A stretch of 64,000 nucleotides of DNA from a virus (IMGVR_UViG_3300030119_000552:1-64000), one strand, 5' to 3'. Shown: positions 22,674 to 54,361, numbered from the stretch's first letter. The notes: a model not told the origin generated them from the sequence alone. Program-made: numbers and translations.

Positions 22674-24104
22674 TTAAAAAGCAAAGAACTCTTTGCTTTT
22701 GTTTTTCTCGGAAGGTTGGTTTGGTGATTCTGCATCGTCAACTCTTGTTTTAGCAATGATAGCATAATCTTTTTCTTTTTCTATTCCGATATATTTTCTA
22801 TCGAGCATTTTAGCCGCAATACAAGTTGTTCCACTTCCAACAAACGGATCAACAACAACATCATTTTCACGACTTCCAAGTGTTATTAAATAACTCATTA
22901 GTTCAATGGGTTTAACGGTTGGATGAACATTTTGTTTTTCCGTGACAAATCTACCAGTAACATCGTGGTCGATTTTGCTATTGCTCATATCTTCTGCATT
23001 TCTTCTTCCTGGCATTGAAGAACTTTTCTTTTTAGGAAGATGTTCAAGACCTTTGTTTTTTTCTGCTTTGCTTGCTTTTGCAACAATCATAAAAGGAAAA
23101 GTCTTTTGAACACTTTCGGGCAATTTGTGTATTTGTGATTTCCACCAAGAATCTAAATCGTAAAAACGAGAAAACGATCCTTCGTCTCCGTAAGTTCTTC
23201 CGGCGGGTTTGCCTGTGCTTTCTTGCCAAATACCACCCGATCCACTTCCACTATCTGTGTGTTTTCCTTTGCTTCGTTTTACTCCGTCATTAAGTACATC
23301 GTCTTGTATAATTAAATTGGCTGCGAATCTTCCGTCTGGTTGTTTATATTCACCTGCACCACCTCGTTCAAAGCACTTGGTTTCTTTTTTTCTGTCGGAA
23401 GTCCACATATCCTTTCCTTCACGTGGTGTTGGATTTTTTGCATATGCTCCACCATCTAAACTTTCGTCCGTTGGAATTCTACAATCGTCTAACCAAGTAA
23501 TGCCTTTGCCATTTTTCATTGCTTGTTCAATATAAGATGATTCTTCAATAGGTTTCATTGCAACAAGCACAACTTCTACCGCAGGTTTAGGTTGATAACC
23601 TACATAAGACCCATCAAGTTCTTTTGCTTCATCAGATGTTGCTTCAAACTTTTCATATTCCGATTTGAATGAATCCTCTTTTCGTCCTGCGAGTTTTCCA
23701 TTCCATTCGGAGTTTTGTTTCCCCATTCCTTTGACTTTTCCTAAAGATTTTGCTTTTACTTTCAGTTTTTTATCAACTGCCCTACTAACATTTGTTGCTT
23801 TTGGAAATCCTGTTGCGTATGTCCAATAAATCGGAGTGAATCCAATATTGAATCCTGCGTCTTCTAAACGAACCATCATACGACTTTGTACATCTGAACG
23901 TGGTGCTGACATAACGAAACAGAATCCTCCTGGTTTCAAAACTCGTAAACACTCTTGCCAAATTTCTAATGCAGGAACTGCTTTGTCCCAATCACGATTC
24001 ATAAACGAGTATCCATAAGGTGGGTCTGTACAAACTAAGTCTACCGATTCGTCCTCAAGTTTCTTGAGAACTTTTAAACTATCTCCATTTATTATTTTAT
24101 TCAT
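22674..24104 (-). CDS. N6A/N4C DNA methyltransferase
   Basis: TDPPY, HPTVKP, DPFVGSGTT. Start placed at MNKIING. Confidence 0.93.
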   Translation of the reverse strand: MNKIINGDSLKVLKKLEDESVDLVCTDPPYGYSFMNRDWDKAVPALEIWQECLRVLKPGGFCFVMSAPRSDVQSRMMVRLEDAGFNIGFTPIYWTYATGFPKATNVSRAVDKKLKVKAKSLGKVKGMGKQNSEWNGKLAGRKEDSFKSEYEKFEATSDEAKELDGSYVGYQPKPAVEVVLVAMKPIEESSYIEQAMKNGKGITWLDDCRIPTDESLDGGAYAKNPTPREGKDMWTSDRKKETKCFERGGAGEYKQPDGRFAANLIIQDDVLNDGVKRSKGKHTDSGSGSGGIWQESTGKPAGRTYGDEGSFSRFYDLDSWWKSQIHKLPESVQKTFPFMIVAKASKAEKNKGLEHLPKKKSSSMPGRRNAEDMSNSKIDHDVTGRFVTEKQNVHPTVKPIELMSYLITLGSRENDVVVDPFVGSGTTCIAAKMLDRKYIGIEKEKDYAIIAKTRVDDAESPNQPSEKNKSKEFFAF

Positions 24105-24993
24105 AACTAAAAAACTTATTTGAGTTAACACGAAGTTTGTCTTGCTCACAATACTCAGGTATTTCATATTCACCTTGTTTGCGGAAAACCATAATATATT
24201 CGTGTATTTTACTTGTATATCTTTTGCTTGCTACTTTCGCACATTGAACATAAGCAAACGGACTAAGATTCTTCATAATGATTGTATCGTGATGAATCAT
24301 TCCTTCATTTACAAATGCAGTAATCAAGTCCGAGTGAAATGAATGCAGTCCACTTCCATCTATAGCTCTCCAGTCTGCGACTACCCATACACAAAACGCA
24401 CCTGGTTTCAAAACACGATTTACATTGCGACCACACTTTTGAATTTGATCCATAAAATCGTTGTAAGTTTCACATTCACTTAATTGATTTTTTGCGGTTT
24501 CATACTTTTCAAGATTATGATACGGAGGACAAGTAAACACCAAATCAGCAGTTTCATTTTGTGTGTGAAGCATTTCTGTTCCATCACAATTAAAAAGTTT
24601 AGGGGATACCTTGAACTTTTCAAAATGCCTCGTACATCGTGTATATGTTTGTTGTGATACTTCATAACCTTGATAGTCACGACCTAGTTTACAAGCAACC
24701 ATAGCACGGGTAGCACGACCTGCAAATGGGTCTACAACTATACTTCCACGCATACTCCAATAATTAAGTATTTGTTCTGCTACACCCGCATGAAATTCAC
24801 TGAATCTAAGACCAGGAAGATTCTCCGCATCTAAACTTCTTTTTCTTTCACAAATGCCATCGTCAAGATACGCTTCCGGCCACTGTTCACGATGATCACG
24901 ACTTGGTTCTAATACACTCAAAGGCAACCAACCGAATTGTTCATCAATTCTACAATCTTTTCTGATTGGAAGTATTTGATTATAGTTTGCCAT
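24097..24993 (-). CDS. amino-DNA methyltransferase (CPPY variant)
   Basis: VDPFAG before FTCPPY, then LKPG and HEYIMVFRK. Confidence 0.88.
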   Translation of the reverse strand: MANYNQILPIRKDCRIDEQFGWLPLSVLEPSRDHREQWPEAYLDDGICERKRSLDAENLPGLRFSEFHAGVAEQILNYWSMRGSIVVDPFAGRATRAMVACKLGRDYQGYEVSQQTYTRCTRHFEKFKVSPKLFNCDGTEMLHTQNETADLVFTCPPYHNLEKYETAKNQLSECETYNDFMDQIQKCGRNVNRVLKPGAFCVWVVADWRAIDGSGLHSFHSDLITAFVNEGMIHHDTIIMKNLSPFAYVQCAKVASKRYTSKIHEYIMVFRKQGEYEIPEYCEQDKLRVNSNKFFSYE

Positions 24994-29784: not shown

Positions 29785-31002
29785 TCAATTCTTTTTCCAA
29801 ATCCAAATTGGTTCTGCGAATGCAACATCTTTGGTTTCTTCGGTAATTTCCTTAAGGCCTTCCGAAAAATACTCACTCTTGGCATTTCCTGCACCACCTG
29901 AATTAAATCGTTTCGTCATTTCCATTCCAATGCAACCAAGATATTCAAGACCTTGTGATTTAATAAAGTCATTCATTGGATTTGTAATTTCAACATAGTC
30001 GTTGATGGGAGCATTAAATACATCTGCGATATTGATTGCAAGAATACCACTCTTCTTTATTGTCGGAATTATCTTACCAAGTGTAGTGTGAAGAAACTTC
30101 TCGTTCCAATCATCTATTTTTTTATATCTCACCCAAGATTGCGTATCATCTTCCGAATACTTTTCTGTATTAAAATATGGTGGACTTGTAAACACCGTAT
30201 CAAAGTAATTTTCGTATTGTGAGTAATCTACGTCTTCGGCAGGACTTTCTATTAGGTCTACTTTTCTATCTTGTTCAAAAAAGGTAGAATACTTTTCATA
30301 GAACTGAATTTGCTTTTGGTAGTTAGGATGATTAAGTGTATTGGGATCGATTCCAACATAATGCTCTGTGGTTTCACCTGTATAAAATCCTGCTAGTCTA
30401 TCACCCCATCCTGCACTAAAGTCTAATATGTTCTTGCTTTGAAAGTGATCGTAAAATGCTTTTGCTACTGCCGGTTTGAATTGTGATGCGACATACTTGC
30501 GAAGAGTGGTAGCAACACGGAGAGTGTTAATATCGACTTGATTAAGAACTTTATCTAACGTCCAATAAGCACGAACGATTGTTTTGATTCCTTTTACTGT
30601 TTGCCAAGTTTTCCAACCACTTGGAGTTCTTGTCCAATCTACTTTCCAACGAGTTTCTACATGAAATGGATTGGAAGCATTATTACCAGAATTGTTTCTT
30701 TTCAACAGAAACTGAGAATCTTTGTAGTTAAGGTGGTAGTTGCTTTTTCTTTCATTGCGAGGAAACCACTTTTTTTCTACAAGTACATCATTGTGCTTTA
30801 TTCCTTTTAACTTATTCAAACTATCAAGAGTTTGTTTATTTGTAATTTTAGGTAGTGGAGCGGGATATGTGTGTAATACTTTTGCCAATTCTTCTACAAC
30901 ATCTTCTTTTTCATACTTTTGCATAATGTCTTTCCACTCATCCTCTTCAATGAGGAGATATGGTTTCATGTTGTAGAACTTTTTGAAATGCTCTTGTAGC
31001 AT
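29785..31002 (-). CDS. phage amino-DNA methyltransferase (FTSPPY family)
   Basis: LDFSAGWGDRL, FTSPPYFN, NIAD, EPIWIW. Confidence 0.85.
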   Translation of the reverse strand: MLQEHFKKFYNMKPYLLIEEDEWKDIMQKYEKEDVVEELAKVLHTYPAPLPKITNKQTLDSLNKLKGIKHNDVLVEKKWFPRNERKSNYHLNYKDSQFLLKRNNSGNNASNPFHVETRWKVDWTRTPSGWKTWQTVKGIKTIVRAYWTLDKVLNQVDINTLRVATTLRKYVASQFKPAVAKAFYDHFQSKNILDFSAGWGDRLAGFYTGETTEHYVGIDPNTLNHPNYQKQIQFYEKYSTFFEQDRKVDLIESPAEDVDYSQYENYFDTVFTSPPYFNTEKYSEDDTQSWVRYKKIDDWNEKFLHTTLGKIIPTIKKSGILAINIADVFNAPINDYVEITNPMNDFIKSQGLEYLGCIGMEMTKRFNSGGAGNAKSEYFSEGLKEITEETKDVAFAEPIWIWKKN

Positions 31003-40300: not shown

Positions 40301-40328
40301 TAAACTTTTAAAGTATATATTTATTGTC

Positions 40329-41954
40329 GTGGACATTGTAGAGCATTTTATCAAAAATATTGATTCATCTTTTGAGGTAGATGATATTTTATGCGAACTT
40401 GCATTACATGATTTATTCAAAAGAGACAATAAACAAAGGTTTATTGATAAGGTTGATAACAACGAAATGCTTGATGATAAAAATAATCCACTTAAACTAA
40501 AAAGTGGAACTACATCTTTATGGAATGATATGAAAAAACAACTTTTATCTGCGAAAGATAAAGACGGAATATCTGATTGGGGTGGTCGTGGTGATACTAA
40601 AATAAAACAACTATTTGGTGTACCTATCAGTAAAATAGGCAAATCACAGAATGATATGAGTGGTGGTGCTAGTAGTGGAAATCCAAGTGGTGAAGATTGG
40701 GAAGCAATGATTGCTATTGGACTTGCCACTATTGAAAACAAAGACCCGTCAAAAGAAGTGCCAGATGAATGGTCACGAATAGAAAGAAAAGGTTTTTGGA
40801 ATAGTGATTTTAATCGTGACATTGCCGAAAAACTTGCAACTGCATTTAAAAAGAATGGATACAATCCAATTTCTCAAACAGGAAGTGGAAAGGGTGGTGC
40901 TGGTGTATCAGGTGAGTGGGGAGATATTTATAAAGAATACGGAAGTGGTTCTATGAACAAAACTCCGAAGACTGACATTAAAGGTGGGTCAAAGAAAATC
41001 TCTTTAAAGAAAGCAGGTGGTTCTCAAGCAATGAGTGCCAAGCAAGCAGAAGCAGCCGCAACATTTGGAGCAGCCGTTAGAATGTATGGCAAGAATTATC
41101 CAAGTAGTGTTAATACTATTTTAGATAAATTTAAAACTTCTGTGTTGGATTTATCTGATAGTAATTATCGTGGAAGCATTGATGCTCTTGAAAAAGATAT
41201 TAAAAGTAGTCAAGGTGATCCAAAGAAAATGAGAAATTTAAAACCCGTGATCGACAATTTAAAACAAGCACGTGACGATGGTAAGTTTATTACTTCGGAA
41301 ATGAATCGTGTATTTTTGTCTGATTCTAAGTTCAAAAATTTATTTGTATTTGAAGCAGCCACCGGTTCTGTTAAATTTGGTGATACATCAGAAAGTCGTG
41401 CTGATACAATGGTTGAAATTGATACTGATAGTGGTAAGATTACATCTCAATATAAAATGGACACACCAAATGACATTTCTTCTCTTGCCAATCAATACAA
41501 GTTTTATTTGTCATTCAAAACAAGTGGTAATAGTGTTCCTTATATGGCACTGCGAGGGAATATGGAACAAGACCCAAAGAAGGTTACGGGTTGGATGAAA
41601 AATCAACTAATGGAAAATAAAAACTTTTCAACGATATGTCCAACTTTTTTCAACATCATTAAAGAAGGATTTGAACAAGATGCTTTTGGTAAAAGACTTT
41701 TAAATGAATCAAGTTTTCAAAATCTAAACGAGTGGCAAATGCTAAAAAAAGTTCGTGACGGAATTACTTCTGTTAGCAACAAAGTAAAAGACCGTTTTGT
41801 TAAAATTTGGAATTGGATTTCTGAAAGAATATCCAAGGCATTTGATTGGATCAAAAAACAAGGTGCAAGAGCATTAGAATATTTGCAAAAGTTTTTTGGA
41901 ATCAAACTTGACAAGTGTGGAATAAGTGGAAAGTTAGAACTCTTTTCAAAATGA
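40329..41954 (+). CDS. putative PD-(D/E)xK-fold nuclease-like protein 2 (GTG start)
   Basis: WEAMI ... TPKTDI ... ISLKK; paralog of the previous gene. Confidence 0.6.
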   Translation: MDIVEHFIKNIDSSFEVDDILCELALHDLFKRDNKQRFIDKVDNNEMLDDKNNPLKLKSGTTSLWNDMKKQLLSAKDKDGISDWGGRGDTKIKQLFGVPISKIGKSQNDMSGGASSGNPSGEDWEAMIAIGLATIENKDPSKEVPDEWSRIERKGFWNSDFNRDIAEKLATAFKKNGYNPISQTGSGKGGAGVSGEWGDIYKEYGSGSMNKTPKTDIKGGSKKISLKKAGGSQAMSAKQAEAAATFGAAVRMYGKNYPSSVNTILDKFKTSVLDLSDSNYRGSIDALEKDIKSSQGDPKKMRNLKPVIDNLKQARDDGKFITSEMNRVFLSDSKFKNLFVFEAATGSVKFGDTSESRADTMVEIDTDSGKITSQYKMDTPNDISSLANQYKFYLSFKTSGNSVPYMALRGNMEQDPKKVTGWMKNQLMENKNFSTICPTFFNIIKEGFEQDAFGKRLLNESSFQNLNEWQMLKKVRDGITSVSNKVKDRFVKIWNWISERISKAFDWIKKQGARALEYLQKFFGIKLDKCGISGKLELFSK

Positions 41955-43060
41955 AAAATATAATTGAGCACTTCTTAGAAAAAAATGTATCTGAGGCATA
42001 TAATATTGTTCCAAATTCTGTGGAAGAAATTGATTCACTCAAAAATACCGCAGTTGATATTGAAACTATAAAGTCGGTTTATTCTTATATATTTTCTAAA
42101 AACTCTTCACTTGCAAACCCTATTGCAGTTAGTTCCAATTCGAAAGAAAAACACATAAAAGTTGCAAGAGACATTGCGGACGATTTCGATTTAAATTCAC
42201 TATCTAAAAAGTTCGGAGTTAAGTTAACGGCAGGTGACGGTTCACGTGGTCGCCGTGGTTCAAATAACCAAGGAACTGGGTTTGAGAAGGATCTTGTAGA
42301 CGATATAAATCTATTCATCGAAGAGGGAATTGAGTCAACGTCGTTCAAGTATCCATCTTTAATACAAGACTTGTATAAAGACATACTTTCCAAACACAAA
42401 AGCATTCAAGTTAATTTAGAGGGAGGTGCTAACACAAAACGACCACTTGAATTTACCGAGATAGGTGCTGTTATAGGTGGTACTGCAATTAACGTTGGTC
42501 ACGTGGTTACTGATGTTACTATAATCGGTGACGGAACTACATACTACTATTTATCTCTAAAAAGCTCAGGTACCGTCACCTTTTTCAATTGTGGTGTCAG
42601 AAAAATTTTAACAAAAGACCAATTTGAAAATGGAAAAATTACTAACAAAAATGGAAAAACAATTTTAGATATGTTTGGTATTGACGAGAAAAAATTTATT
42701 AACATTTTTCAATCATATAAAGGTAAAACAAAAAAACGTAGTAAAAAAGAAACCGAGGATGTTACTTCCAAGGTAAACAAAAGATCTCTTCACAGAATGT
42801 TGCTCACTGGAATTGGATATGGATATTATATGCTTCATAAACGAGGAAAGAATGTTGAATACTATAAAATGAATGTGGCAAATCTTAAAAAATCTGTAAA
42901 AGTTAAGAAGGTGGTGATTCTATGGCCTGCTCCAGGTTCTGCAAAAAGAATTGATATTCAGATTTTAACTGACAAGTATGTGTTTAAGGTAAATATAAGA
43001 AATAAACAGGGTGGTTTATATCCTACTCACATTATGTGTGATTATAGGTATATACAATAA
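41951..43060 (+). CDS. putative PD-(D/E)xK-fold nuclease-like protein 3
   Basis: G.GFE ... VTDVTI ... YLSLK; ATGA-coupled to the previous gene. Confidence 0.6.
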   Translation: MKNIIEHFLEKNVSEAYNIVPNSVEEIDSLKNTAVDIETIKSVYSYIFSKNSSLANPIAVSSNSKEKHIKVARDIADDFDLNSLSKKFGVKLTAGDGSRGRRGSNNQGTGFEKDLVDDINLFIEEGIESTSFKYPSLIQDLYKDILSKHKSIQVNLEGGANTKRPLEFTEIGAVIGGTAINVGHVVTDVTIIGDGTTYYYLSLKSSGTVTFFNCGVRKILTKDQFENGKITNKNGKTILDMFGIDEKKFINIFQSYKGKTKKRSKKETEDVTSKVNKRSLHRMLLTGIGYGYYMLHKRGKNVEYYKMNVANLKKSVKVKKVVILWPAPGSAKRIDIQILTDKYVFKVNIRNKQGGLYPTHIMCDYRYIQ

Positions 43061-43090
43061 TTACTTTTTGTAAAACACAAAGATAGGTTC
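43061..43090 (-). repeat. 30-bp copy of the methyltransferase 3' end (EPIFVFYKK*)
   Basis: 28/30 identical to 43310-43339. Confidence 0.9.
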
Positions 43091-43093
43091 TGT

Positions 43094-43264
43094 CTATGAA
43101 GTTTGAGTTTCTAATTGAACTCTGACATACGGTTCACCCGTTTCCTCTTCATCTATATCGGCAATGTTGCAATTTACCAACTTTAAGGGTAATTTTTCAA
43201 CCGACCCATCTACCTCAAACGAACATAGATCGTTTCCAAAGTAATCTTCTATTTTAATTTTCAT
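43094..43264 (-). CDS. small acidic hypothetical protein (56 aa, MKLKIEDYFG...)
   Basis: Not in the ORF track. Has its own promoter TTGACT-N17-TATATT at 43271-43299. Confidence 0.7.
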   Translation of the reverse strand: MKIKIEDYFGNDLCSFEVDGSVEKLPLKLVNCNIADIDEEETGEPYVRVQLETQTS

Positions 43265-43309
43265 ATATATAATATAATATTATTATTATAATAAGTCAAG
43301 GTATTTATA

Positions 43310-44887
43310 TTATTTTTTGTAAAACACAAAGATTGGTTCGTACTTGTGCAACTCTCCGTTTATTTGACAACAATTTTTGATTGTGGTTCTATCTCCACGC
43401 ATTGTTGCCATAAGCATTTTAAGAGTTTCAACATACTCAAGACCGTATTCTTGTAAAATGTTTTTGCTATCTTCTTCAAGTGGTATATATCCACCATCGT
43501 GAGTGATGTCCGCAATATTCCACAATAAATACCTGTCGTTTCTTAAATATTGAGATGCAGTTTTTAATGTGGGACGAAGAAAGTTTTCTTTCCAATCTTC
43601 GTATGATGGAAACTTCTTGAAACTTTGTGTGTCATCTGATGAATATTGTTCACGATTAAAATAAGGTGGACTTGTAAATACTAAATCAAATGTTCCTTTA
43701 TACTTTTCAAATTCTTTGTTTCGGTGAATAACCTCACTTCCTTCTTGAAACAAGTCGTATGTATTGCGATGACCAAAGAACGGATTACCACCATTTGTTT
43801 TGTCGTTGAAAAAATCTGCTACATATTCGTATCTTGATTTGTTAAGTTCATTTATATAGTTGTCTGTATTTGGGTCTGTTCCAACATAATGTATTTGACG
43901 ATCATCTATGCTCATAGCACCAAGTATTCTTCCTCCCCATCCTGCACTTGGATCATATACAGTGAGATCATTTTTGTTTTCAATGTGGTCTGTATATTTT
44001 TGATAAACGAATTTTGCAGTTAATGGTGGAAAGTTTACGGCAGGATGTCTTCCGAGTCCAAGACGAAGTGCTTCCATGGCCGATGGAAAGATAGTTGATG
44101 TTTTGTCGTAGTAACGAACACTAAATTTATATTGAGTTTCATCAAGTGTATCAAGTTTATCAAAGTCTGTATTAAAGTCTGTTGTTTTTTCTAAATTGCT
44201 GATATTGTTGTGTTCAAGAAGGCCTTCTTTATACAACCGAAGTATTTGTTGAGCAGATAACAATAAATGATTTTCTTCATAGTCTTCAAACTTTCTTTCG
44301 GTGAAAAGTTCAATAATCCAAAAGTCATTGTCGGGATATAAATGTTTTTCTGCTATAAAGTTTCTAATCCAAGTTTCTCCATCGTTCGTTGGATATGGTA
44401 CTTCATCATCGTTTTTTCTGATTGTTTTTCCGTGAGCAAAAAAAGCATCTCGTCTAATTGTTCTTCTCATTGTGACGTGGAAACTATCTCTTTTATCTGG
44501 ATCAACAAAATAGTCGTAAATGCTTTCTGAATGTGTACCGGTTTGCAATGCCATTTTCGTTTTAAGCATTGTTGGAAAAAACTGATCAATAACCGTTGCG
44601 AACTTGTTAAAGTTTTTTATGATTGTGTTTGTTTTGTCAAGTTCATCAATATGTAAAAACTTGCTAACATCATATCTTTGTAGTTTATTAAATTGTGCAA
44701 TAATATCTTTTTCGATTTTACCACTTCTTGGTGGAATTCCTTTTTCATTCCAAGTAGTAACAATATAATCTCTTAAATCATCCAACCAAATTTCAAGTTC
44801 CTCTTTGCTTTTTAAAAGTAACTGATGGAAGGTTGTGTTTTGCTCCCAATCTACGAGGTTGTTTTTCTCGTAAAAATATTTCTTCAT
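43310..44887 (-). CDS. large phage amino-DNA methyltransferase, copy B
   Basis: NFPP..AK, YDPSAGWGGR, FTSPPYFN, WNIAD, YEPIFVF. Confidence 0.85.
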   Translation of the reverse strand: MKKYFYEKNNLVDWEQNTTFHQLLLKSKEELEIWLDDLRDYIVTTWNEKGIPPRSGKIEKDIIAQFNKLQRYDVSKFLHIDELDKTNTIIKNFNKFATVIDQFFPTMLKTKMALQTGTHSESIYDYFVDPDKRDSFHVTMRRTIRRDAFFAHGKTIRKNDDEVPYPTNDGETWIRNFIAEKHLYPDNDFWIIELFTERKFEDYEENHLLLSAQQILRLYKEGLLEHNNISNLEKTTDFNTDFDKLDTLDETQYKFSVRYYDKTSTIFPSAMEALRLGLGRHPAVNFPPLTAKFVYQKYTDHIENKNDLTVYDPSAGWGGRILGAMSIDDRQIHYVGTDPNTDNYINELNKSRYEYVADFFNDKTNGGNPFFGHRNTYDLFQEGSEVIHRNKEFEKYKGTFDLVFTSPPYFNREQYSSDDTQSFKKFPSYEDWKENFLRPTLKTASQYLRNDRYLLWNIADITHDGGYIPLEEDSKNILQEYGLEYVETLKMLMATMRGDRTTIKNCCQINGELHKYEPIFVFYKK

Positions 44888-46473
44888 TTCTTGTAAAACA
44901 CGAAGATAGGTTCGTACTTTTGTAACTCTCCGTCTATCTTGCAACAATTCTTAACCGTTTCTGCTTTAACACCACGCATTGTTGTCATAAGCATTTTAAG
45001 AGTTTCAACATACTCAAGTCCGTATTCCGCAAGAATATCACGACTATCTTTTTCTAATGGCATAAATCCATCTCCATCTGCAATGTCTGCGATATTCCAA
45101 AGCAAGTATCTATCGTTCTTCAAATATTCGGCAGCCGTCTTCAAAGTAGGACGAAGAAAGTTATCTCTCCAATCTTCATACTCTGGAAACTTTTTGAAAC
45201 TCTGAGATTCATCTGCTGAATATTGTTCACGATTAAAATATGGTGGACTCGTAAAAACCAAATCAAGTTTGCCTTTGTATTTTTGGAAACTTGGATTTTT
45301 GGAAATTTCCTCACTTCCGTCTTGGTAAACATCATAAGTGTTACGGTGACCAAAGAACGGATTACCTCCGTTTGTTTTATCATTAAAAAAGTCGGCAAGA
45401 TATTCATAACGACTTTTACCAAGTTCATCAATATAGTTGTCGGTGTTCGGATCAGTTCCTATATAGTGAATTTGCCTATCATGTACTGACATAGCACCAA
45501 GAATACGACCACCCCAACCTGCACTTGGATCATATATATGAAGATTGTTTTTGTCTTCAATGTGGTCTGTGTATTTTTGGTATATATATTTTGCAGTCAA
45601 CGGAGGAAAGTTTACTGCTGGTTGACTAAGACCCAACTTAAATGCTTCCATTGCCGATGGAAAAATTCTTGAGTTCTTGTTATAGTAACGAATGCTGAAA
45701 CGAAATTCTACTTCTTTGTCATCTTCAAGTATAACATCATTTATATTTTCAATATCATCACCAAAGTTTGCAGTTCTTTCTAGATTTCTGATGTTATTGA
45801 TTTCAAGCAAACCTTCTTTGTGAAGTTTTTTAATTTGCTTTGCGGTGAGCATCAAACTACTTTCTTCATATGAATCAAACTTCTTTTCGGTGAATAACTC
45901 AATGATCCAAAAGTCGTTGTTTGGGTGTAGGTGTTTTTCTTTTACAAAATTCCTAACCCACTCTTCTCCGTCTTCGGTTGGACAAGGAACATCATAATCA
46001 TTTTTCTTGATTGTTTTACCGTGTGCATAAAACGAATCTCGTCTTACCGTTCGTCTCATGCAGGTGTGAAAACTTTCTCGTTTCTCTGAATTGGCAAAGC
46101 AATCATATACACTCCACGACGTGTGTTTGCTTGAACCTATTTTTGTTTTAAGCATGGTTGGAAAAAACTGGTCTACTACCGTTGCAAACTTGTTGAAGTT
46201 TTTAACGATTGTCATTGTTCCGTCCATTTCATCTTTGTGTAAAAACTTATAGGTTTTATATCCTGCTAACTTGTTGAAGTTGGCAATTATGTCTTTTTCG
46301 TTTTTACCTGTTCGTGGAGGAAGACCTTCTTTATCCCATGTTTCAACTATATAGTTTCTGAGTTCATCTATCCACTCTTCTAACTCTAAACCATTCTTTT
46401 GTAAAAGTTCGTGGAATGTAATATTAACCTTACACTCTGTTAAATTGTTTTTCTCGTAAAAATATTTTTTCAT
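44884..46473 (-). CDS. large phage amino-DNA methyltransferase, copy A
   Basis: Same motifs as copy B; tandem paralog, ATGA-coupled. Confidence 0.85.
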   Translation of the reverse strand: MKKYFYEKNNLTECKVNITFHELLQKNGLELEEWIDELRNYIVETWDKEGLPPRTGKNEKDIIANFNKLAGYKTYKFLHKDEMDGTMTIVKNFNKFATVVDQFFPTMLKTKIGSSKHTSWSVYDCFANSEKRESFHTCMRRTVRRDSFYAHGKTIKKNDYDVPCPTEDGEEWVRNFVKEKHLHPNNDFWIIELFTEKKFDSYEESSLMLTAKQIKKLHKEGLLEINNIRNLERTANFGDDIENINDVILEDDKEVEFRFSIRYYNKNSRIFPSAMEAFKLGLSQPAVNFPPLTAKYIYQKYTDHIEDKNNLHIYDPSAGWGGRILGAMSVHDRQIHYIGTDPNTDNYIDELGKSRYEYLADFFNDKTNGGNPFFGHRNTYDVYQDGSEEISKNPSFQKYKGKLDLVFTSPPYFNREQYSADESQSFKKFPEYEDWRDNFLRPTLKTAAEYLKNDRYLLWNIADIADGDGFMPLEKDSRDILAEYGLEYVETLKMLMTTMRGVKAETVKNCCKIDGELQKYEPIFVFYKK

Positions 46474-46474
46474 A

Positions 46475-47296
46475 TCAAGCACCAACATTCCAAAACAAAG
46501 CACCTGGTTTTGCGTGTTCTTTTACAAATTTCCATGCCTTCGCATCATAAGTTGGAGCAGATGGAAATGGTGGCATTTCGTTTTCTTTTATTGCTTTATC
46601 AAATGAATAATCTGACCTGTAATATGTTGCTCGTCCTATTTCTCTTTCATTCATTTTATGTCCAACAGATACTACACTAACAGGTATCTCAGGAAATGCA
46701 AGTTGTAAACCACGACTAATCGTTCCACTTGAACCAACACTCCATATTTCACTCGGAGGGTTTTTTGATAATGCGTTTCGTGCAACTTTTATAATACTTG
46801 CAACAACCGTTGGGTGTTCTAACCCAATTGGAAACTCCATTCTGTTTTCTGGATCTTCAGCTACATATTTTTTTGCTCTTGATTTGGTTACTGATAGCAT
46901 TCCCATGTTAACCCATTCGTAAATAGCACCAAGTTTCATTCCCCTTTTTTGATATTCGTGGTAGTTCTCTGGATTTCGTTTTGCCATGAACAATATGACC
47001 TTTTTATCATACTTTTTTGCTACAGCAGGTAAAGATATTTGTGCATATCCCGTTGCGGGACAACAACCGAATACTATTTCTTTTGCGGTTGTTTCTTTTA
47101 TGAATTTATCAACGAATCTAATTTTGCTTCCGTGGTTTAAAAGGTCATCTCTGACTACATCAATACCATCATAGTTGATAATAACTGGATCTGGATTTGG
47201 GTCTTCCCAATTATCTACCAATTCAAGAAGTTGGTCTTCACTCCACATATTTCCTGTGTTGTCTTCGTATATTGATTCTATAAATTGTGATAACAT
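46475..47296 (-). CDS. PLP-dependent enzyme (fold type II)
   Basis: VVRDDL..GSK.R (PLP lysine), VGSSGT phosphate loop, YDAKAW, LFWNV. Confidence 0.8.
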   Translation of the reverse strand: MLSQFIESIYEDNTGNMWSEDQLLELVDNWEDPNPDPVIINYDGIDVVRDDLLNHGSKIRFVDKFIKETTAKEIVFGCCPATGYAQISLPAVAKKYDKKVILFMAKRNPENYHEYQKRGMKLGAIYEWVNMGMLSVTKSRAKKYVAEDPENRMEFPIGLEHPTVVASIIKVARNALSKNPPSEIWSVGSSGTISRGLQLAFPEIPVSVVSVGHKMNEREIGRATYYRSDYSFDKAIKENEMPPFPSAPTYDAKAWKFVKEHAKPGALFWNVGA

Positions 47297-47766
47297 TACC
47301 ATTCCTTTGTGTTTACTTTTTTAGCTCGGGTTTCACTTAGTTCAACTCCCATTAGTTTTCCAAGCAACCTAGTTCTTTGGGAAGGACCTGGATTGCCTTG
47401 AGTGTTGTACATAAAATAACATTTTTTTGCTTGTGTGTAATCAATGTCTTCAAAGTTGGGAAACTGGTCAACTGCCAAATCGACTATTGAATAATCTGGC
47501 CACATTATGAAACGATGCAATCCATCGTCTCCTGGTATTCCAGGTAGTTTGTATGGTTTAGAACCTCTTGGTGACAAATAGTAATACACGAACTCGGCAA
47601 TTACATAGCAATAGTTTTTGGTTGGGTTGTCTTCTGACCAAGATTCTTTCATTAACTTTGTTTTAAGATGTTGTGTTCCCATACACCTAAGTGATTTGTG
47701 TAATCTTTCTTTGGTTACACCTGCTAATTTATACATTTCTTGAAGTCGTTCTTCCGAAATTTTCAT
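47296..47766 (-). CDS. hypothetical protein
   Basis: Coupled ORF with CY..AE, H and DL...QF motifs. Confidence 0.7.
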   Translation of the reverse strand: MKISEERLQEMYKLAGVTKERLHKSLRCMGTQHLKTKLMKESWSEDNPTKNYCYVIAEFVYYYLSPRGSKPYKLPGIPGDDGLHRFIMWPDYSIVDLAVDQFPNFEDIDYTQAKKCYFMYNTQGNPGPSQRTRLLGKLMGVELSETRAKKVNTKEW

Positions 47767-49049
47767 TCAATATAATCGTCTGCTTCTTTTGTTGGTGGGT
47801 ACAATGTACTACTTTCCACTAACCAATCTCTGAAGTTCTGATTTGCTTTTAGGTCGACAACTAGATGGTATCTATCTTCCGTTCCACCATTGAATGCAGT
47901 GTGTGGTTTTCTCATATCAAGATACCACAACTCACCTTCTTTCATTTTGTCTACCGTTTTAGAACCATCTGTATTCCACAATGTGAATTGAACCTTTGGG
48001 TTTGTTCTGATGGGAAAGTGTACTCTTGCCCATTGATTGTCTGATATACCTGCGTCTTTATCTTGTCGGTCTGTATGACGTTGAAGTTCACCTTCTCCAC
48101 CTGCAAGTTTAAGAATTCTGATTCTTTCAAACTCATATGGAAGTAATTTTAAGTACTCTTCTACTGCCGGAAGTTTTTCACGCAACGGAGTGTCTTGAAC
48201 TTTCCACTTTAGTTTTTCTGGATTTTCTTTTCTCCATTTGTTGTTCATTTCACTTGGTTTGATGATAAAGTCCCACTCACCTCCGTATCCTGATATGGTG
48301 ATACCCGACCAAGAATCACTTTTGTTGTAATTAGAATAGTGATTTGAGAAATCTGAATTTACCTTATCTAGTTGTTCCATAATATTCTTTGGATTTGGAA
48401 TCTTGGGCATGGCAAGTCTTTGTAAAGCAATTTCCTGTGCAGGATCTATATGTGGGTGTTCTCCACCCTTGAACCAAAATCCGTACATATCTGCGAAACT
48501 CGAAATTAAATTATCTTTGCGTTTGTAACCTATTGACTCAAGAAGTTCACGGATTCTTTTCAACTGCATATCGCATTCTATTACTGTAGTTCCGTCTTCA
48601 AAGAAGTTTCCTTTTGCTTCGTGTTTTTGTATGAGTTTTCCTAACCATTCTTCGTATCCCGGATAACACGCAACTTCTTGTATATAAGAATCGTTGGAAC
48701 TCAATGTAATTTCTCTACCGGTGAAACTTACAATTTTCTTTTTCTTGGAGTGCATCTTAGGTATATCGAAGTATAAGATACAGGCTCGTATTTTTCCGTC
48801 TGTATCTTCTACCCAATCAACTTTTTCGTATGTATCTTCTTTATGACCAAGAAGTTTTTGGTTGGTCATGTTGTTTATTTTTCTGAATGGGTCTCTTAAA
48901 CGAGGGGAATCTTTAAAAGAATCTTCTGGATGTTGTGTTTCCCAAAAACAACTTAAAAGGTTTTCGTATATAGGACTATCTTCATAAACCCACTTCTTTC
49001 CATTGTGAAATGGTTTTGGGTATTCGAGTTCGTATTTTCTAAAATTCAT
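47763..49049 (-). CDS. Asp/Asn beta-hydroxylase-like Fe(II)/2OG cupin with a possible N-terminal GNAT-like domain
   Basis: RIR..L....L..HTD, R.HFP..TN, GE.WYLD..KPH...N.G..R.HLV.D. The GNAT call is tentative. Confidence 0.75.
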   Translation of the reverse strand: MNFRKYELEYPKPFHNGKKWVYEDSPIYENLLSCFWETQHPEDSFKDSPRLRDPFRKINNMTNQKLLGHKEDTYEKVDWVEDTDGKIRACILYFDIPKMHSKKKKIVSFTGREITLSSNDSYIQEVACYPGYEEWLGKLIQKHEAKGNFFEDGTTVIECDMQLKRIRELLESIGYKRKDNLISSFADMYGFWFKGGEHPHIDPAQEIALQRLAMPKIPNPKNIMEQLDKVNSDFSNHYSNYNKSDSWSGITISGYGGEWDFIIKPSEMNNKWRKENPEKLKWKVQDTPLREKLPAVEEYLKLLPYEFERIRILKLAGGEGELQRHTDRQDKDAGISDNQWARVHFPIRTNPKVQFTLWNTDGSKTVDKMKEGELWYLDMRKPHTAFNGGTEDRYHLVVDLKANQNFRDWLVESSTLYPPTKEADDYIE

Positions 49050-49070
49050 CCATATATTATATGGATTATT

Positions 49071-49976
49071 TTACTTTCCGTCAACAATTTTTTTAATGTA
49101 ATCTTCCAACTTAATTTTTGCTTGCCAACCAAGATGTTGGTACGTTAAAGAAGGAATTGCTTTTCCGTAAAATCGTTCACCACGACGTTCTGGAATCATA
49201 ATGTGCTTATGATTAAACATTTTTGCCACATCAATTATTTTATGTGGAACACCAGTACCAAGTGGGTACTCTCCTTGTTGTCCTTTTTCGGCTGCTAATA
49301 CAACTCCACTTACGATGTCTTTGATGTGAGTAAAATCTCTTGATTGTTCTCCCGGTTCTACAACCGTAAGTGGTTCTCCGTTTGCATATTGCTCTTCAAA
49401 GATTCCTATCACGGTCGCGTAGTCACCTGTTCTTACTTGTCCAGGACCATACGCATTATAGAAGTATGTGATTTCAAATTTAAGACCAAACCAATCTGCG
49501 TAATTGTTGATAAGTTCAACCATTTTTGCTTTCATCCATGCATACGGAGAAAGGTTTTCATCTTTACCATCATTACCGAATTTACTTGAACTTGCTGAAT
49601 AAATTAACTTTGCTTTTTTTGCGACACAATAATCAAGAACCATTTTTGTTCCTTGCATATTAAAGTCCCAACAATTATCGAAAGCATCAAAGCTCGTTAC
49701 GATTCGTGAAAACTCCCCAAAGTGAAATACAACATCTGGTTCAAACGCATCTGCAATATCCATCTTGGTATTGTTTACGTCAAATTTTTTTGGAATCAAA
49801 GTCTGAGTGTCTTTGTTAAGATAAGTTACTTTTTTACTTTTGATGTGATTGCTTTTACAACCACTACTATAATTGTCAATACTTACTATTTCTATACTCG
49901 GATACTTTTTGAGTAGTCTTTTAATTAGTGCAGTACCAACGAATCCTGCTCCACCTGTGATTAACACTTTATTCAT
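49071..49976 (-). CDS. NAD-dependent epimerase/dehydratase
   Basis: TGGAGFVG, SSS, Y...K, YFYNAYGP, RDFTH. Confidence 0.92.
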   Translation of the reverse strand: MNKVLITGGAGFVGTALIKRLLKKYPSIEIVSIDNYSSGCKSNHIKSKKVTYLNKDTQTLIPKKFDVNNTKMDIADAFEPDVVFHFGEFSRIVTSFDAFDNCWDFNMQGTKMVLDYCVAKKAKLIYSASSSKFGNDGKDENLSPYAWMKAKMVELINNYADWFGLKFEITYFYNAYGPGQVRTGDYATVIGIFEEQYANGEPLTVVEPGEQSRDFTHIKDIVSGVVLAAEKGQQGEYPLGTGVPHKIIDVAKMFNHKHIMIPERRGERFYGKAIPSLTYQHLGWQAKIKLEDYIKKIVDGK

Positions 49977-49998
49977 TATCAATAAATATTATGTAAAC

Positions 49999-50406
49999 CT
50001 ACTTCCTCTCTTTTAGACCAGTTAAATCACTTGAACTACGTATTTTATCGCCGAGACCATCAATCATTTCAATTCCATGTTTCTTGCAAACAACACTTTC
50101 TGGAACTTCACCCACACTTCTATCTCCACCATTTGCAAAGATGTTGGGTTTTATTGCATCAAGAGAAGCACACACACTTTTGTCTTCATCAATACTGAGA
50201 AATGCTTCATCTACTATTCCGAGTGCTTCTACGATTTTTACTCGGTCTGCTTCGTCCATAAATGGTTTGCCTTTTTTAAGAACACATTGATGGTTGTTGT
50301 TTACGATAACGACAAGACGATCACCGAGTTGTTTTGCCAATTCAAGATATTCCAAATGCCCTACGTGAATTGGATCAAAGTATCCACTAACTGCTACTGT
50401 TTTCAT
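49999..50406 (-). CDS. cytidylyltransferase-family protein
   Basis: SGYFDPIHVGH, FANGGDR, KIRSSS. Confidence 0.9.
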   Translation of the reverse strand: MKTVAVSGYFDPIHVGHLEYLELAKQLGDRLVVIVNNNHQCVLKKGKPFMDEADRVKIVEALGIVDEAFLSIDEDKSVCASLDAIKPNIFANGGDRSVGEVPESVVCKKHGIEMIDGLGDKIRSSSDLTGLKERK

Positions 50407-50410
50407 AATG

Positions 50411-50782
50411 TTACTCCGATTCGTGTTTTTCTGGACGATCATAGTCATCTTGAACTCGGACAATGTCATCTTCACCAAAATAAGTTCCTGTTTGAACTTC
50501 CACCAAAATCATATCTTCTGAATCACTTGGGTTTGCCATACGATGTTTTGCTTCAAGTGGAATCAATACGGTTTCACCTGGTTTGTAATCTTCCGTGACA
50601 TCATCCAAGGTTATTCTTGCAACACCACTAACAACTGTCCATGCTTCTTGTCGTTTGTGATGATACTGATAACTTAGTCTTTGTCCTGGTTTTACAAAGA
50701 TGCGTTTAACTTTGCAGTATTCTGCGTCTAGGAGAATTTCATAATTTCCCCAAGGTCTAATGCTTTCGTCTTGTTTACTCAT
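50411..50782 (-). CDS. type II mannose-6-phosphate isomerase cupin domain
   Basis: RPWG.Y, RLSYQYH..R.E.W, EVQ.G.Y.GEDDIVR. Confidence 0.92.
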   Translation of the reverse strand: MSKQDESIRPWGNYEILLDAEYCKVKRIFVKPGQRLSYQYHHKRQEAWTVVSGVARITLDDVTEDYKPGETVLIPLEAKHRMANPSDSEDMILVEVQTGTYFGEDDIVRVQDDYDRPEKHESE

Positions 50783-50786
50783 AAAT

Positions 50787-51038
50787 TTATCCCCACCTAT
50801 CAGCCAAATCTTGTTCAGAAATGTCGGACTTTGTTTCTACTGATTTTATTTCCATATCAAGTTCTAATGTATCTATAATTCCATTTGCGGTATTTACCAA
50901 GTCTTCACATACTTGTTTTGGGTCTGACCACAACTTCAAATCGTGCATCATGGTAATATCATCACCGATTCCGTATGTACGAAAATCAAACTTTAGAACT
51001 ATCTGGTCGTTTTCTATTTTAACATCTGATAATTTCAT
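50787..51038 (-). CDS. hypothetical protein
   Basis: ORF in operon. Confidence 0.65.
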   Translation of the reverse strand: MKLSDVKIENDQIVLKFDFRTYGIGDDITMMHDLKLWSDPKQVCEDLVNTANGIIDTLELDMEIKSVETKSDISEQDLADRWG

Positions 51039-51044
51039 ATATAT

Positions 51045-51674
51045 TTAAATATCTTTCTTGGGAACAGGACCACACGTATAATTGAATTTTTCTATTGATT
51101 TTCTGTGTCGTTGAGCAACAATTGCTCCTGAATGATAGTTGTAGTATTTCCAGTATTCTTCGTTTTTCTTTTTAAATGGAAATGTTCCAATTTTCCTTAG
51201 ACTTTTGTATTCAATGTTTAACTTTTCACATAAAGTTTTATAGTCTTCGTCAAGATTCTCAAATCGCATATAATGATCCATTGTAGGACTACCTTTTTTA
51301 TCAAAGTAAAATGGTTGGTTGAAGTGAGTATAATTTCCAATCCACCTTGCAAACTGCTCTTTGAATTCATAACCATCAAATTTCATTTTTAAAAGTTTAT
51401 CAATGTTCTCTCTGTGATTTTTTCCAACTAAACCACCATCTTGCCACCAAAAATAAGAAACCATACGATCCCAAGGATTTCGTGTAATTGTAAACTTAAA
51501 ATAATTGTTGAACTTTTTTTTGCCTACTATGTGTAGTGTATCTTTGGGGTTTCTGTGAGTGGTGTCTATAACATCTTTATCACCACACTGCTCAATCAAA
51601 TTGTGTTCAACACTATTACCACCGACCTTCCAAGGTTTGAAAAATATAAACTTGTGTTTGTGAGATATAATCAT
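51045..51674 (-). CDS. sulfotransferase (family 2)
   Basis: IISHKHKFIF..K.GG.S, RNPWDR.VS, RFENL. Confidence 0.85.
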   Translation of the reverse strand: MIISHKHKFIFFKPWKVGGNSVEHNLIEQCGDKDVIDTTHRNPKDTLHIVGKKKFNNYFKFTITRNPWDRMVSYFWWQDGGLVGKNHRENIDKLLKMKFDGYEFKEQFARWIGNYTHFNQPFYFDKKGSPTMDHYMRFENLDEDYKTLCEKLNIEYKSLRKIGTFPFKKKNEEYWKYYNYHSGAIVAQRHRKSIEKFNYTCGPVPKKDI

Positions 51675-52624: not shown

Positions 52625-52625
52625 T

Positions 52626-53468: not shown

Positions 53469-53535
53469 ATAACGCAATCTCCATTTAATTAATGCGATAT
53501 AACCTTTTATAATAAATATGTAATAGATTGCTTTA

Positions 53536-54342: not shown

Positions 54343-54361
54343 ATCCATATATATGTAGTTT

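Follow-up and report, generated by a model that had tools for sequence, protein, structure and literature searches.

The window analysed here, a 64,000-nucleotide stretch from a marine T4-like phage, carries on its minus strand, between positions 43310 and 49049, a cassette of five genes, each of which abuts or overlaps its neighbour. The first gene (47763-49049) encodes a 428-aa fusion of a GNAT fold and a 2OG-Fe(II) oxygenase, identified by domain, fold and profile matches. It is followed by genes for a 156-aa YunG-like Cys-His-Asp protein (47296-47766), recognised by PF24585 family matches and invariant residues; a 275-aa fold-type-II PLP enzyme of the M6 gp52 family (46475-47302), with phrog_7093 and gp52 profile matches; and two paralogous SPPY proteins of the amino-methylase fold, MT2 (44884-46473, 529 aa), with motifs I and IV and PF01555 family matches, and MT1 (43310-44887, 525 aa), an extra tandem copy sharing 71% identity with MT2. 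The YunG-like gene start and the oxygenase stop overlap by 4 nt, the PLP and YunG-like genes overlap by 7 nt, MT2 begins 1 nt after the PLP stop, and the MT2 TGA and MT1 ATG overlap as ATGA; these junctions confirm the compact layout of the preliminary description. MTase ORFs of 545 and 539 aa in a mechanical listing (TTG/GTG) begin upstream of the conserved MKKYF start. A sigma70-like promoter candidate (49056..49084, minus strand; TTGACG-17-TATAAT, 11/12 match) lies directly upstream of the first gene. In total, promoter-like sites in the region do not exceed the number expected after shuffling, and it is by its position and quality alone that this site is suggestive. Dozens of other viral contigs show these genes linked again, so that the arrangement is not a product of chance. 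No published description of this five-gene cassette was found in the literature.

The fusion protein combines a GNAT fold (residues 1-198) with an AspH/proline-hydroxylase-type oxygenase (residues 202-420). The latter scores 37.7 bits on PF05118 (cut-off 22.6) and its HxD...H triad is intact, the invariant residues of the fusion protein being H325, D327, H383 and R393. The protein matches 4p7w by profile (E 4.8e-11), and for its AF2 model (pLDDT 90.8) VIA gave matches to L-proline cis-4-hydroxylase and AspH (Z 15) and to many GNATs (Z about 12). Both folds proposed earlier are thus borne out, but the GNAT-like part lacks the canonical acetyl-CoA pyrophosphate loop, which counts against the reading preferred below. 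Fe/2OG hydroxylases had also been presented as a tailoring class of the M6, ViI and PaMx11 pathways; they do not figure among the classes listed by Lee et al. 2021 (PMC8989533). In the YunG-like protein, a small thiol protein, Cys53, His84 and Asp96 are invariant. PF24585 is matched weakly by the window protein (16.9 bits) and by 9/9 family members (best E 3.8e-06), and the Atlas neighbours are viral YunG or Phage_YunG-like clusters.

On its own, the PLP protein gave no match in Pfam. It matches phrog_7093 (E 1.7e-39), and its family profile matches cysteine synthase and serine dehydratase in the PDB, the invariant Lys60 falling on the PLP lysine of cysteine synthase. The family profile A3 also matches, over its full length, an ORF of phage M6 (39333-40112; E 1.6e-19, 222/239 positions), which is gp52 as judged from its flanking amino acid:DNA transferase (PF18724) and radical-SAM genes. 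K36 of gp52, the predicted aldimine lysine (Lee et al. 2021, PMC8989533), aligns with the invariant K60 of the window enzyme, in which the GSGT phosphate loop is likewise invariant, and the PPFPS..YDAKAW..FWNV motifs of the family have C-terminal counterparts in gp52 (PFP..YD.KAW..FWN). With the purified gp52 protein, Lee et al. 2021 (PMC8989533) showed decarboxylation of C-alpha-glycinyl-thymine in DNA, and the substrates of the characterised family members, M6 gp52 and ViI gp226, are DNA-bound amino acids (PMC8989533). At 24% identity, the window enzyme is, on sequence grounds, a homologue of gp52 with a predicted decarboxylase function. The earlier assignment to fold type II is upheld. Like M6 gp52 and ViI gp226, the enzyme is phage-encoded and clustered with DNA-modifying genes, and it has in common with them the protein family, the aldimine lysine, the Gly-rich phosphate loop and the C-terminal motifs (PMC8989533).

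MT1 and MT2 are 63.5% identical in their N-terminal domains and 79% identical in their catalytic domains. Both present motif I (DPSAGWGG) and then motif IV (TSPPY) within their last ~240 aa, as expected for the two paralogous SPPY MTases of about 525-530 aa with long N-terminal regions described earlier. The family invariants are motif I, an acidic motif II (GTDPN) and TSPPY. The ~285-aa N-terminal region gave no family match and no fold match. PF01555 is matched by 27/30 family members; MT1 and MT2 themselves score 22.9 bits, below the 26.7-bit Pfam cut-off, which also weighs against the preferred reading. As in classical N4-cytosine/N6-adenine methylases (PF01555 N6_N4_Mtase, [DNS]PP[YF]), a SAM-binding motif I and an SPPY catalytic motif are present, most family members match PF01555, and the nearest viral structure models to the catalytic domain are annotated as N4-cytosine DNA methylases. 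Unlike them, the cassette MTases have the I-then-IV order, the ~285-aa N-terminal domain and an extended [ST][SC]PPY...Y[SN] motif IV, and they are systematically linked with, or fused to, PLP, oxygenase and YunG-like domains.

In the AF2 model of MT1 (pLDDT 84.5), the closest solved structures to the Rossmann domain are the tRNA m2G methylases Trm11, TrmN and Trm14 (Z about 15, a small margin over the 13-14 of other Rossmann methylases). This resemblance raises the question of a target other than DNA, either tRNA or rRNA (an acp- or m2G-type modification) or a virion protein or glycan. To our knowledge, acp and hydroxylated-acp modifications occur only in RNA, which would favour such a target, as would the glycan-synthesis cluster that adjoins the cassette in the window. 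However, glycan genes are not conserved neighbours of the cassette in the loci of relatives, the characterised homologue of the PLP enzyme acts on DNA, and the MTase family includes ParB_N fusions and Eco57I-type as well as PF01555 matches, which point to DNA. Given also the small Z margin, a non-DNA target appears very unlikely.

Relatives of the PLP enzyme are encoded on 533 IMG/VR stretches. In a survey of 81 IMG/VR loci, an MTase-fold gene is adjacent to the PLP gene in 67, a GNAT-oxygenase gene in 51 and a YunG-like gene in 15; 22 loci contain PLP and MTase genes only, with no GNAT-oxygenase gene within the flanks. Gene order differs among lineages. The conserved core is MTase and PLP enzyme, to which the oxygenase and YunG-like protein are optional additions. 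Six of the 81 loci have a PLP gene with no detectable MTase nearby, a further point against the preferred reading, and some of these MTase-less loci have other neighbours, for example a UDG-superfamily protein or a carbamoyltransferase. Among 150 representative clusters surveyed for fusions, MTase and PLP domains are joined in both orders and YunG and PLP domains in 10. Single proteins combine MTase, GNAT, oxygenase and PLP domains (P0363), MTase, oxygenase and PLP domains (P0376), or oxygenase, YunG and PLP domains (P0365), and in P0320 the oxygenase is fused to PF01555. Moreover, in cultured Erythrobacter phages the MTase domain hosts the PLP domain. In gp7 of Erythrobacter phage ZS04, and in seven representative clusters, the PLP domain is inserted between MTase motifs I and IV, which places the two active sites in one folded unit. 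The linkage of PLP and hydroxylase homologues to MTases in other genomes, on which the preliminary description had made its proposal depend, is therefore abundant, as are multi-domain fusions.

The two MTase copies of the window are not equivalent. MT2 is the copy conserved in relatives, and MT1 is an extra copy found in only a few close ones. The tandem pair, viewed earlier as a trait of the module, is indeed present here but arose by a duplication specific to the lineage; a single copy is found in most relatives, two near-complete genomes among them. A 30-bp relic of an MTase 3' end (43061..43090, minus strand), encoding ..TEPIFVFYKK-stop after an in-frame stop, is probably a remnant left by one more tandem copy or by recombination at the end of the MTase. 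Two more minus-strand genes encode the same methylase subfamily: MT3 (29785..31002, 405 aa; motif IV FTSPPYFNTEKYSEDD), which does not lie beside the PLP gene, and MT4 (24097..24993, 298 aa; motif IV FTCPPYHNLEKYE), which adjoins PolB. MT3 is a possible, uncertain additional user of the tailoring enzymes, and the tie of MT4 to the module is likewise uncertain. Both share the [ST][SC]PPY...Y[SN] signature of PLP-linked MTases although neither is PLP-adjacent; they may be plain methylases, and this too is counted against the preferred reading.

It could be supposed that MT1 and MT2 are themselves ordinary m4C or m6A methylases and that the other three proteins (PLP enzyme, oxygenase and YunG-like protein) lend indirect support or modify another target. 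Examples of such support would be the removal of S-adenosylhomocysteine or the reshaping of amino-acid pools. Every classical methylase motif is intact, MT3 and MT4 have the same motif IV with no PLP neighbour, the phage has at least six amino-methylase-like genes, which is what simple methylation against restriction would lead one to expect, and the cultured carrier R6L is annotated with an ordinary CcrM-like methylase (PMC5463345). Nevertheless, loose metabolic support hardly explains repeated independent fusions, with a PLP domain inside the MTase fold and proteins of three or four domains, and the PLP enzyme is far closer to the DNA-acting gp52 (65 bits with the PLP profile) than to metabolic PALP enzymes (about 29 bits for the best solved cellular ones). 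Plain methylation therefore seems unlikely.

The known 5-hmdU route was also considered. No PF18724 amino-acid:DNA transferase above cut-off and no PF00303 hydroxymethylase/thymidylate synthase was found in the whole 75.8-kb record or in relatives, which include genomes 100% and 98% complete. This excludes the route and sustains, at the scale of the record, the earlier remark that a 5hmU transferase is absent. The cassette thus differs from the M6 and ViI pathways in having no 5-hmdU precursor enzyme, amino acid:DNA transferase or radical-SAM isomerase, and in that the partner of its PLP enzyme is an amino-methylase-fold enzyme, often fused to or hosting the PLP domain. In the 22 minimal PLP and MTase loci, SAM would consequently stand alone as an evident source of an amino-acid moiety.

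Another conceivable installer is the GNAT domain, which would place an amino acid from a charged tRNA on an exocyclic amine, for tailoring by the PLP enzyme and oxygenase. The methylase-fold protein could then give sequence targeting and base flipping, or prior methylation. Mom of phage Mu, an enzyme of the GNAT superfamily, moves glycine from Gly-tRNA to N6 of adenine in dsDNA (PMC13219725). The cassette would resemble it in a post-replicative exocyclic-amine modification with an amino-acid-derived group, and in the GNAT fold, whose lack of the acetyl-CoA loop makes a non-acetyl donor conceivable; the phage also has six tRNA genes. Mom, however, works alone, whereas the GNAT-like domain of the cassette is an optional one, joined to a 2OG oxygenase, the core being MTase and PLP enzyme. 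The 22 loci that have this core and no GNAT-oxygenase indicate that GNAT is not the general installer, and no Mom entry occurs among the fold or sequence matches listed, an absence that is not decisive. Such a mechanism is quite improbable.

The preferred reading, to which we give somewhat better than an even chance, is that the methylase-fold enzyme installs a hypermodification on a base, in the simplest case the amino-carboxypropyl group of SAM, which would then be decarboxylated and optionally hydroxylated or acylated. As a post-replicative system, the cassette would operate as follows. MT1 or MT2 would bind SAM, its large, fast-diverging N-terminal domain locating the DNA target, and a base, once flipped, would have its exocyclic amine (N4 of C, N6 of A or N2 of G) presented to the SPPY pocket. 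A group bearing an alpha-amino acid, whose simplest donor would be the 3-amino-3-carboxypropyl part of SAM itself, would be attached in place of or besides methyl. The PLP enzyme would form a Schiff base with the attached alpha-amine and remove the carboxylate, so that the base would be left with an aminopropyl-type side chain bearing a positive charge. The 2OG-Fe(II) oxygenase (of the amino-acid hydroxylase type)/GNAT-like protein and the YunG-like Cys-His-Asp protein may provide optional tailoring by side-chain hydroxylation, acyl transfer or acyl removal. The earlier proposal of amino-methylase-fold hypermodification with PLP, hydroxylase and acyl tailoring is thus favoured by linkage, fusions, gp52 homology and the lack of a 5hmU transferase; the missing GNAT loop and the lineage-specific nature of the tandem pair qualify it. 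No report is known to us in which an amino-methylase-fold enzyme transfers acp or aminopropyl to DNA, which counts against the preferred reading as well.

The order of the steps could also be reversed, with the PLP enzyme editing SAM, for example by decarboxylation to dcSAM, before the methylase-fold enzyme transfers, for instance, aminopropyl to the base. Either order could lead to one and the same end product. Aminopropyl transferases have the class-I methylase fold, spermidine synthases are among the generic fold matches, and, as no speD was found in the phage or its relatives, dcSAM would have to come from the PLP enzyme or the host. Nested and fused PLP-MTase proteins would suit cofactor channelling and on-DNA trimming equally. 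On the other hand, the SAM decarboxylases known to us use a pyruvoyl group rather than PLP, and of the PLP family M6 gp52 and ViI gp226 alone have been characterised, both of which use DNA-bound amino acids, not free cofactors. Editing of the cofactor first has a precedent in a marine phage (PMC12783734), but on balance its probability here is low. The logic of such editing parallels that of spermidine synthase, or that of CmoX with CmoA, which makes Cx-SAM.

The 5-carboxymethylcytosine system CmoA/CmoX/CmoY of Synechococcus phage S-B43 (Yang et al. 2025, PMC12783734) is also a precedent for the preferred reading. In it, the phage methylase-fold enzyme CmoX places the carboxymethyl group of Cx-SAM on DNA as a handle for later modification (PMC12783734). 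The two systems would be alike in belonging to marine phages, in using a larger-than-methyl group as a tailoring handle and in repurposing RNA-modification logic for DNA. CmoX, however, is a C5-cytosine methylase homologue that uses CmoA-made Cx-SAM, whereas the cassette MTase is of the exocyclic-amine (SPPY) type and has a PLP companion, with no CmoA and no ATP-dependent ligase. The closest chemical analogy would be the wybutosine side chain, in which TYW2, of class-I methylase fold, takes acp from SAM and the acp chain is then hydroxylated by the 2OG enzyme TYW5. The wybutosine route differs in its tRNA substrate, its C-linkage on a tricyclic base, its JmjC-type hydroxylase and its lack of a PLP decarboxylase. 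The hydroxylase role of TYW5 was a prediction (PMC2938197). The product of the cassette is probably a decoration of a DNA base, larger than methyl and not described before, and a base so modified would shield the phage DNA from host nucleases.

The preliminary description had placed five overlapping or abutting minus-strand genes at 43310-49049, and the computed coordinates and junctions agree with it. In gene order, these encode a two-domain oxygenase (47763-49049, 428 aa), a YunG-like protein (47296-47766, 156 aa), a PLP enzyme (46475-47302, 275 aa) and two paralogous proteins with a methylase (MTase) fold, MT2 (44884-46473, 529 aa) and MT1 (43310-44887, 525 aa). Successive genes overlap by 4 nt and by 7 nt, then lie 1 nt apart, and the last two share an ATGA; a sigma70-like promoter with an 11/12 match lies on the same strand directly upstream of the first gene (49084-49056). 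For MT1, each residue number given is one lower than the true number, the query having started one codon past the ATG.

The surrounding region has several features of its own. In the window, a glycan-synthesis block on the minus strand (49071-60792) abuts the cassette. It encodes an NAD epimerase/dehydratase, a cytidylyltransferase, a mannose-6-P isomerase cupin and a UDP-glucose dehydrogenase, then a sulfotransferase followed by a DHHA1-like protein, a DUF3431 protein and GT2 and GT4 glycosyltransferases. Membership of the cassette in this cluster was rejected since the adjacency is not conserved in more distant relatives. On the opposite side, three large plus-strand genes (38744-43060; 518, 560 and 381 aa) converge on MT1. 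A Pfam search gave no match for any of the three; the third matches phrog_8438, and a homologue of the second (560 aa) also converges on the MTase in five relatives (L007-L011). The 3' end of the MTase recurs as a 30-bp copy 220 bp downstream of MT1 (43061-43090, with 43091-43309 between them). This copy encodes ..TEPIFVFYKK-stop, is preceded by an in-frame stop, and seems to have been left behind when a third tandem copy was lost or when recombination took place at the MTase terminus.

The record to which the window belongs is a 75.8-kb IMG/VR viral record, ~40% complete according to CheckV; near-complete relatives of the phage measure 161-177 kb. RIIB, a clamp loader, a family-B DNA polymerase, six tRNA genes and a GC content of ~35% identify a T4-like phage. 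A giant eukaryotic virus, considered on account of PolB, HSP70 and the tRNAs, was ruled out by RIIB, the clamp loader and PHROG matches. The tRNA genes (Cys, Thr, Pro, Glu, Val and Ala) are clustered at 33700-35079 (+). Other cargo of this T4-like phage includes a full-length HSP70/DnaK gene (9623-11551, +; PF00012, E 4e-255), a 517-aa protein combining an alpha/beta-hydrolase (Hydrolase_4) with a glycerophosphodiester phosphodiesterase (GDPD) (37163-38716, +), and a gene of the M29 thermophilic metalloprotease/aminopeptidase family (20913-22031, -; PF02073, E 2.8e-52), which is probably unusual in a phage.

The PLP enzyme of the window has no Pfam match itself and matches phrog_7093; its homologues in Erythrobacter phage ZS04 and Microcystis phage Mae-JY30 score above the PALP cut-off. 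A search of the PDB with the single sequence gave no useful match, and a 50-sequence profile of the family matches cysteine synthase and serine dehydratase structures. Lys60, invariant in the 50 sequences, aligns with the PLP lysine of those structures, including that of Mtb CysK1, and their phosphate-binding loop corresponds to a conserved GSGT loop of the family. Moreover, the family profile (A3) matches the genome of phage M6 over positions 17-238 of 239 (E 1.6e-19, 64.9 bits). The matched ORF is gp52, since it lies between the amino acid:DNA transferase (ADDT) and radical-SAM genes. K36 of gp52 aligns with K60 of the window protein and distinctive C-terminal motifs are common to both. Once purified, gp52 and its ViI counterpart, gp226, were both shown to decarboxylate amino acids that thymine carries in DNA, and K36 of gp52 has been predicted to be the aldimine lysine (Lee et al. 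2021, PMC8989533). The window protein resembles these enzymes in its full-length homology to gp52 and in its conserved Schiff-base lysine and PLP phosphate loop, and may have the same activity.

However, the thymidine hypermodification pathway in which gp52 and gp226 act differs from what is found here. Neither the whole 75.8-kb record nor any of four relatives, of which two are at least 98% complete, has an amino acid:DNA transferase (PF18724) over the cut-off, the search returning one sub-threshold match of 14 bits; the absence of a 5hmU transferase, first noted for the window, thus extends to the whole record and its relatives. The thymidylate-synthase-family dUMP hydroxymethylase (PF00303) was likewise found in 0/5 of these records and was detected in control genomes. 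Because the record and its four relatives are without both genes, the PLP enzyme, judged from gene content, cannot serve the known 5-hmdU route. To our knowledge, phage DNA hypermodification with PLP decarboxylases always starts from 5-hydroxymethyl-uracil and involves a dedicated kinase and transferase.

The methylase-fold proteins MT1 and MT2 are 71% identical. Their last ~240 residues include the SAM-binding motif I (DPSAGWGG), an acidic motif II (GTDPN) and motif IV (TSPPY), all three invariant in 30 homologues; motif I and the catalytic [DNS]PP[YF] of exocyclic-amine DNA methylases are thus both found. SPPY is the usual motif of N4-cytosine methylases. PF01555 matches the two window proteins weakly, at 22.9 bits where the cut-off is 26.7. 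Of 30 family members, 27 match it (best E 1.1e-09), and it is a precomputed call on many database homologues. Neither single-sequence nor profile searches of PDB sequences matched the family. In the AF2 model (pLDDT 84.5), the Rossmann domain is closest to the tRNA m2G methylases Trm11, TrmN and Trm14 (VIA Z 15.3-14.8; rmsd about 3 A over about 180 residues), at Z scores barely above those of other methylases, and the closest viral structure models are proteins annotated as N4-cytosine DNA methylases (E 2.6e-14). A target other than DNA is considered highly improbable.

The first ~285 residues of MT1 and MT2 have no Pfam match in any of the 30 members, which is not evidence of a new fold: the Rossmann domain dominated whole-protein fold searches, and Atlas feature scores for the N-terminal region reach only 0.80-0.84, to unnamed viral clusters. 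This region is 63.5% identical between the two proteins, compared with 79% for the catalytic domain, and its faster divergence fits a putative role in target recognition. The tandem amino-MTases of the preliminary description are indeed present in the window, but as a pair they are confined to it and a few close relatives; two near-complete genomes carry a single copy. Full-length homologues number >2000 in metagenomes and none was found in cultured phages.

An extended motif IV, [ST][SC]PPY...Y[SN], is common to all PLP-linked MTases. The window carries six amino-methylase-like genes, at 17485-18501 (+), 22674-24173 (-), 24097-24993 (-), 29785-31002 (-) and, for the MT2-MT1 pair, 43310-46473 (-). 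Four belong to this subfamily and two are classical beta-class enzymes, one with DPPY and the other with SPPYFQQRDY and a C-terminal motif I. Two of the six flank the DNA polymerase gene.

Linkage between the PLP and MTase genes is widespread. Relatives of the PLP enzyme are encoded by 533 IMG/VR stretches, and 81 loci were scanned for neighbours with profiles built in this analysis. A gene with an MTase fold is adjacent to the PLP gene in 67/81, so that the association predicted from the window recurs; a GNAT-oxygenase gene is a neighbour in 51/81 and a YunG-like gene in 15/81, while 22/81 have only the PLP and MTase genes. Gene order varies with lineage (MT-oxygenase-YunG-PLP or oxygenase-YunG-PLP-MT). 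Fusions were surveyed in 150 representative clusters of the PLP family: the PLP and MTase catalytic domains are fused, in both orders, in 22, and the PLP and YunG-like domains in 10. Single proteins combine MTase, GNAT, oxygenase and PLP domains (cluster P0363), MTase, oxygenase and PLP (P0376), or GNAT-oxygenase, YunG and PLP (P0365), and P0320 is an oxygenase-PF01555 fusion. In gp7 of phage ZS04, the order is ParB_N, MTase motif I, the entire PLP domain and motif IV (FSCPPY...). This order puts the PLP domain within the MTase fold, a nested topology also found in seven representative clusters. Predictions of an MT1-PLP enzyme complex scored 0.00, 0.54 and 0.00, below the mark, which counts neither way.

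Among cultured carriers, the domains are fused in Erythrobacter phages R6L and ZS04 and form an unfused neighbouring pair in Microcystis phage Mae-JY30. In both ZS04 (PV416405, 1-4764) and Mae-JY30 (PP438422, 3384-5702), the PLP domain is nested in, or next to, a ParB-MTase protein that the depositors annotated simply as a DNA methylase; ZS04 has a PAPS-reductase-like gene about 1.4 kb upstream. The R6L fused gene was likewise treated as a CcrM-like methylase (PMC5463345). In addition, two genes of the same subfamily elsewhere in the window, MT3 and MT4, have the motif IV of PLP-linked MTases yet no PLP adjacency, which counts against hypermodification, as do the six of 81 loci in which the PLP gene stands alone or without a nearby MTase. 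Ordinary methylation accompanied by supporting enzymes is rather unlikely. Where an MTase neighbour is missing, the PLP gene is found beside a UDG-superfamily protein and an RNase_T-type exonuclease (locus L065, 7087-7725 and 5061-6458), or near a carbamoyltransferase (L082, 2777-4081) or an AAT-type acyltransferase (L063, 1584-3152), hinting at further partner sets for the PLP family.

The remaining two cassette proteins may be tailoring enzymes. Residues 1-198 of the oxygenase fusion (AF2 pLDDT 90.8) adopt a GNAT fold, to which >25 GNAT structures align at Z 10.5-12.3. Judged from sequence, the acetyl-CoA pyrophosphate-binding loop (Q/R-x-x-G-x-G/A) appears to be absent: at the corresponding place the window protein has A-C-Y-P-G-Y-E-E, and distant homologues have P-G-H/Q-E. 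Mom, a GNAT-superfamily enzyme, installs its group from aminoacyl-tRNA (PMC13219725); installation of this kind by the GNAT domain is very unlikely here, and the 22 GNAT-less loci speak against it. Residues 202-420 form a 2OG oxygenase with a double-stranded beta-helix (PF05118, 37.7 bits against a 22.6 cut-off). Its nearest structures, at Z about 15, are L-proline cis-4-hydroxylase, a beta-hydroxylase of a nucleoside-antibiotic pathway, proline 3-hydroxylase and AspH (VIA Z 15.4 to 4p7x and 15.1 to AspH 8re5; Foldseek E 2e-10). The iron triad HxD...H (H325, D327, H383) is invariant in 33 sequences, as is R393, a candidate 2OG ligand. The YunG-like protein matches PF24585 weakly (16.9 bits against a cut-off of 27), and all 9 aligned relatives match this family (best E 3.8e-06); a minority of members in neighbouring Atlas clusters carry PF24585 or PF24591. 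Its profile gave only chance-level PDB matches and no solved relative. Invariant Cys53, His84 and Asp96 suggest a thiol hydrolase or acyl-transferase.

How the substrate of the PLP enzyme might arise can be considered from its chemistry. Such an enzyme would require a primary amine beside the bond that is broken, and in minimal loci with only MTase and PLP genes the sole evident amino-acid source would be SAM, the MTase's own cosubstrate. The most economical scheme would comprise transfer of a 3-amino-3-carboxypropyl (acp) group to an exocyclic amine positioned in the SPPY pocket, gp52-like decarboxylation leaving an aminopropyl-type side chain and, optionally, hydroxylation, acyl transfer or hydrolysis. 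The motif would favour N4 of cytosine as the target; N6 of adenine and N2 of guanine would also be possible. It is tentatively proposed that this marine-phage MTase-fold family transfers the acp or aminopropyl group of SAM, rather than methyl, to an exocyclic nitrogen of a DNA base. The gp52-type decarboxylase, often in the same polypeptide, would then yield a cationic N-(3-aminopropyl) base, which the 2OG oxygenase, GNAT-like domain and thiol enzyme may hydroxylate or acylate further.

A scheme with the steps reversed, the PLP enzyme acting on SAM before any group is transferred, is rather unlikely. Genes hinting at use of dcSAM or disposal of MTA, speD (PF02675) and MTA/SAH nucleosidase (PF01048), are absent from all five records, which is uninformative. 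Precedents for parts of the proposed acp scheme exist. Wybutosine synthesis pairs TYW2 with a hydroxylase, TYW5. The latter has been predicted (PMC2938197), and CmoX moves a carboxymethyl group from Cx-SAM onto phage DNA (PMC12783734).

Phage DNA hypermodification with PLP trimming is already known; this route of installation and these partners are not, and the literature searched yielded no published description of a PLP-methylase DNA modification system. If the proposal is true, SAM-derived alkylation of a DNA amino group with something other than methyl would be seen for the first time, as would a purine or cytosine-N4 counterpart to the polyamine-like hypermodifications of thymidine. The chemistry may also add a new reaction to the repertoire of one of the best-known enzyme folds, and sequence-specific attachment of a primary amine to DNA would be a useful labelling tool. 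The cultured phages R6L, ZS04 and Mae-JY30 make the hypothesis directly testable. The module is common, as the 533 stretches and the abundance of metagenomic MTase homologues indicate, so that any effect, possibly on restriction, nanopore or SMRT base-calling, or metagenome library bias, would be ecologically broad. The occurrence of the same trimming-enzyme family with exocyclic-amine methylase-fold enzymes, in genomes without the 5-hmdU machinery, implies a second, undescribed way of placing an amino-acid-like group on DNA.
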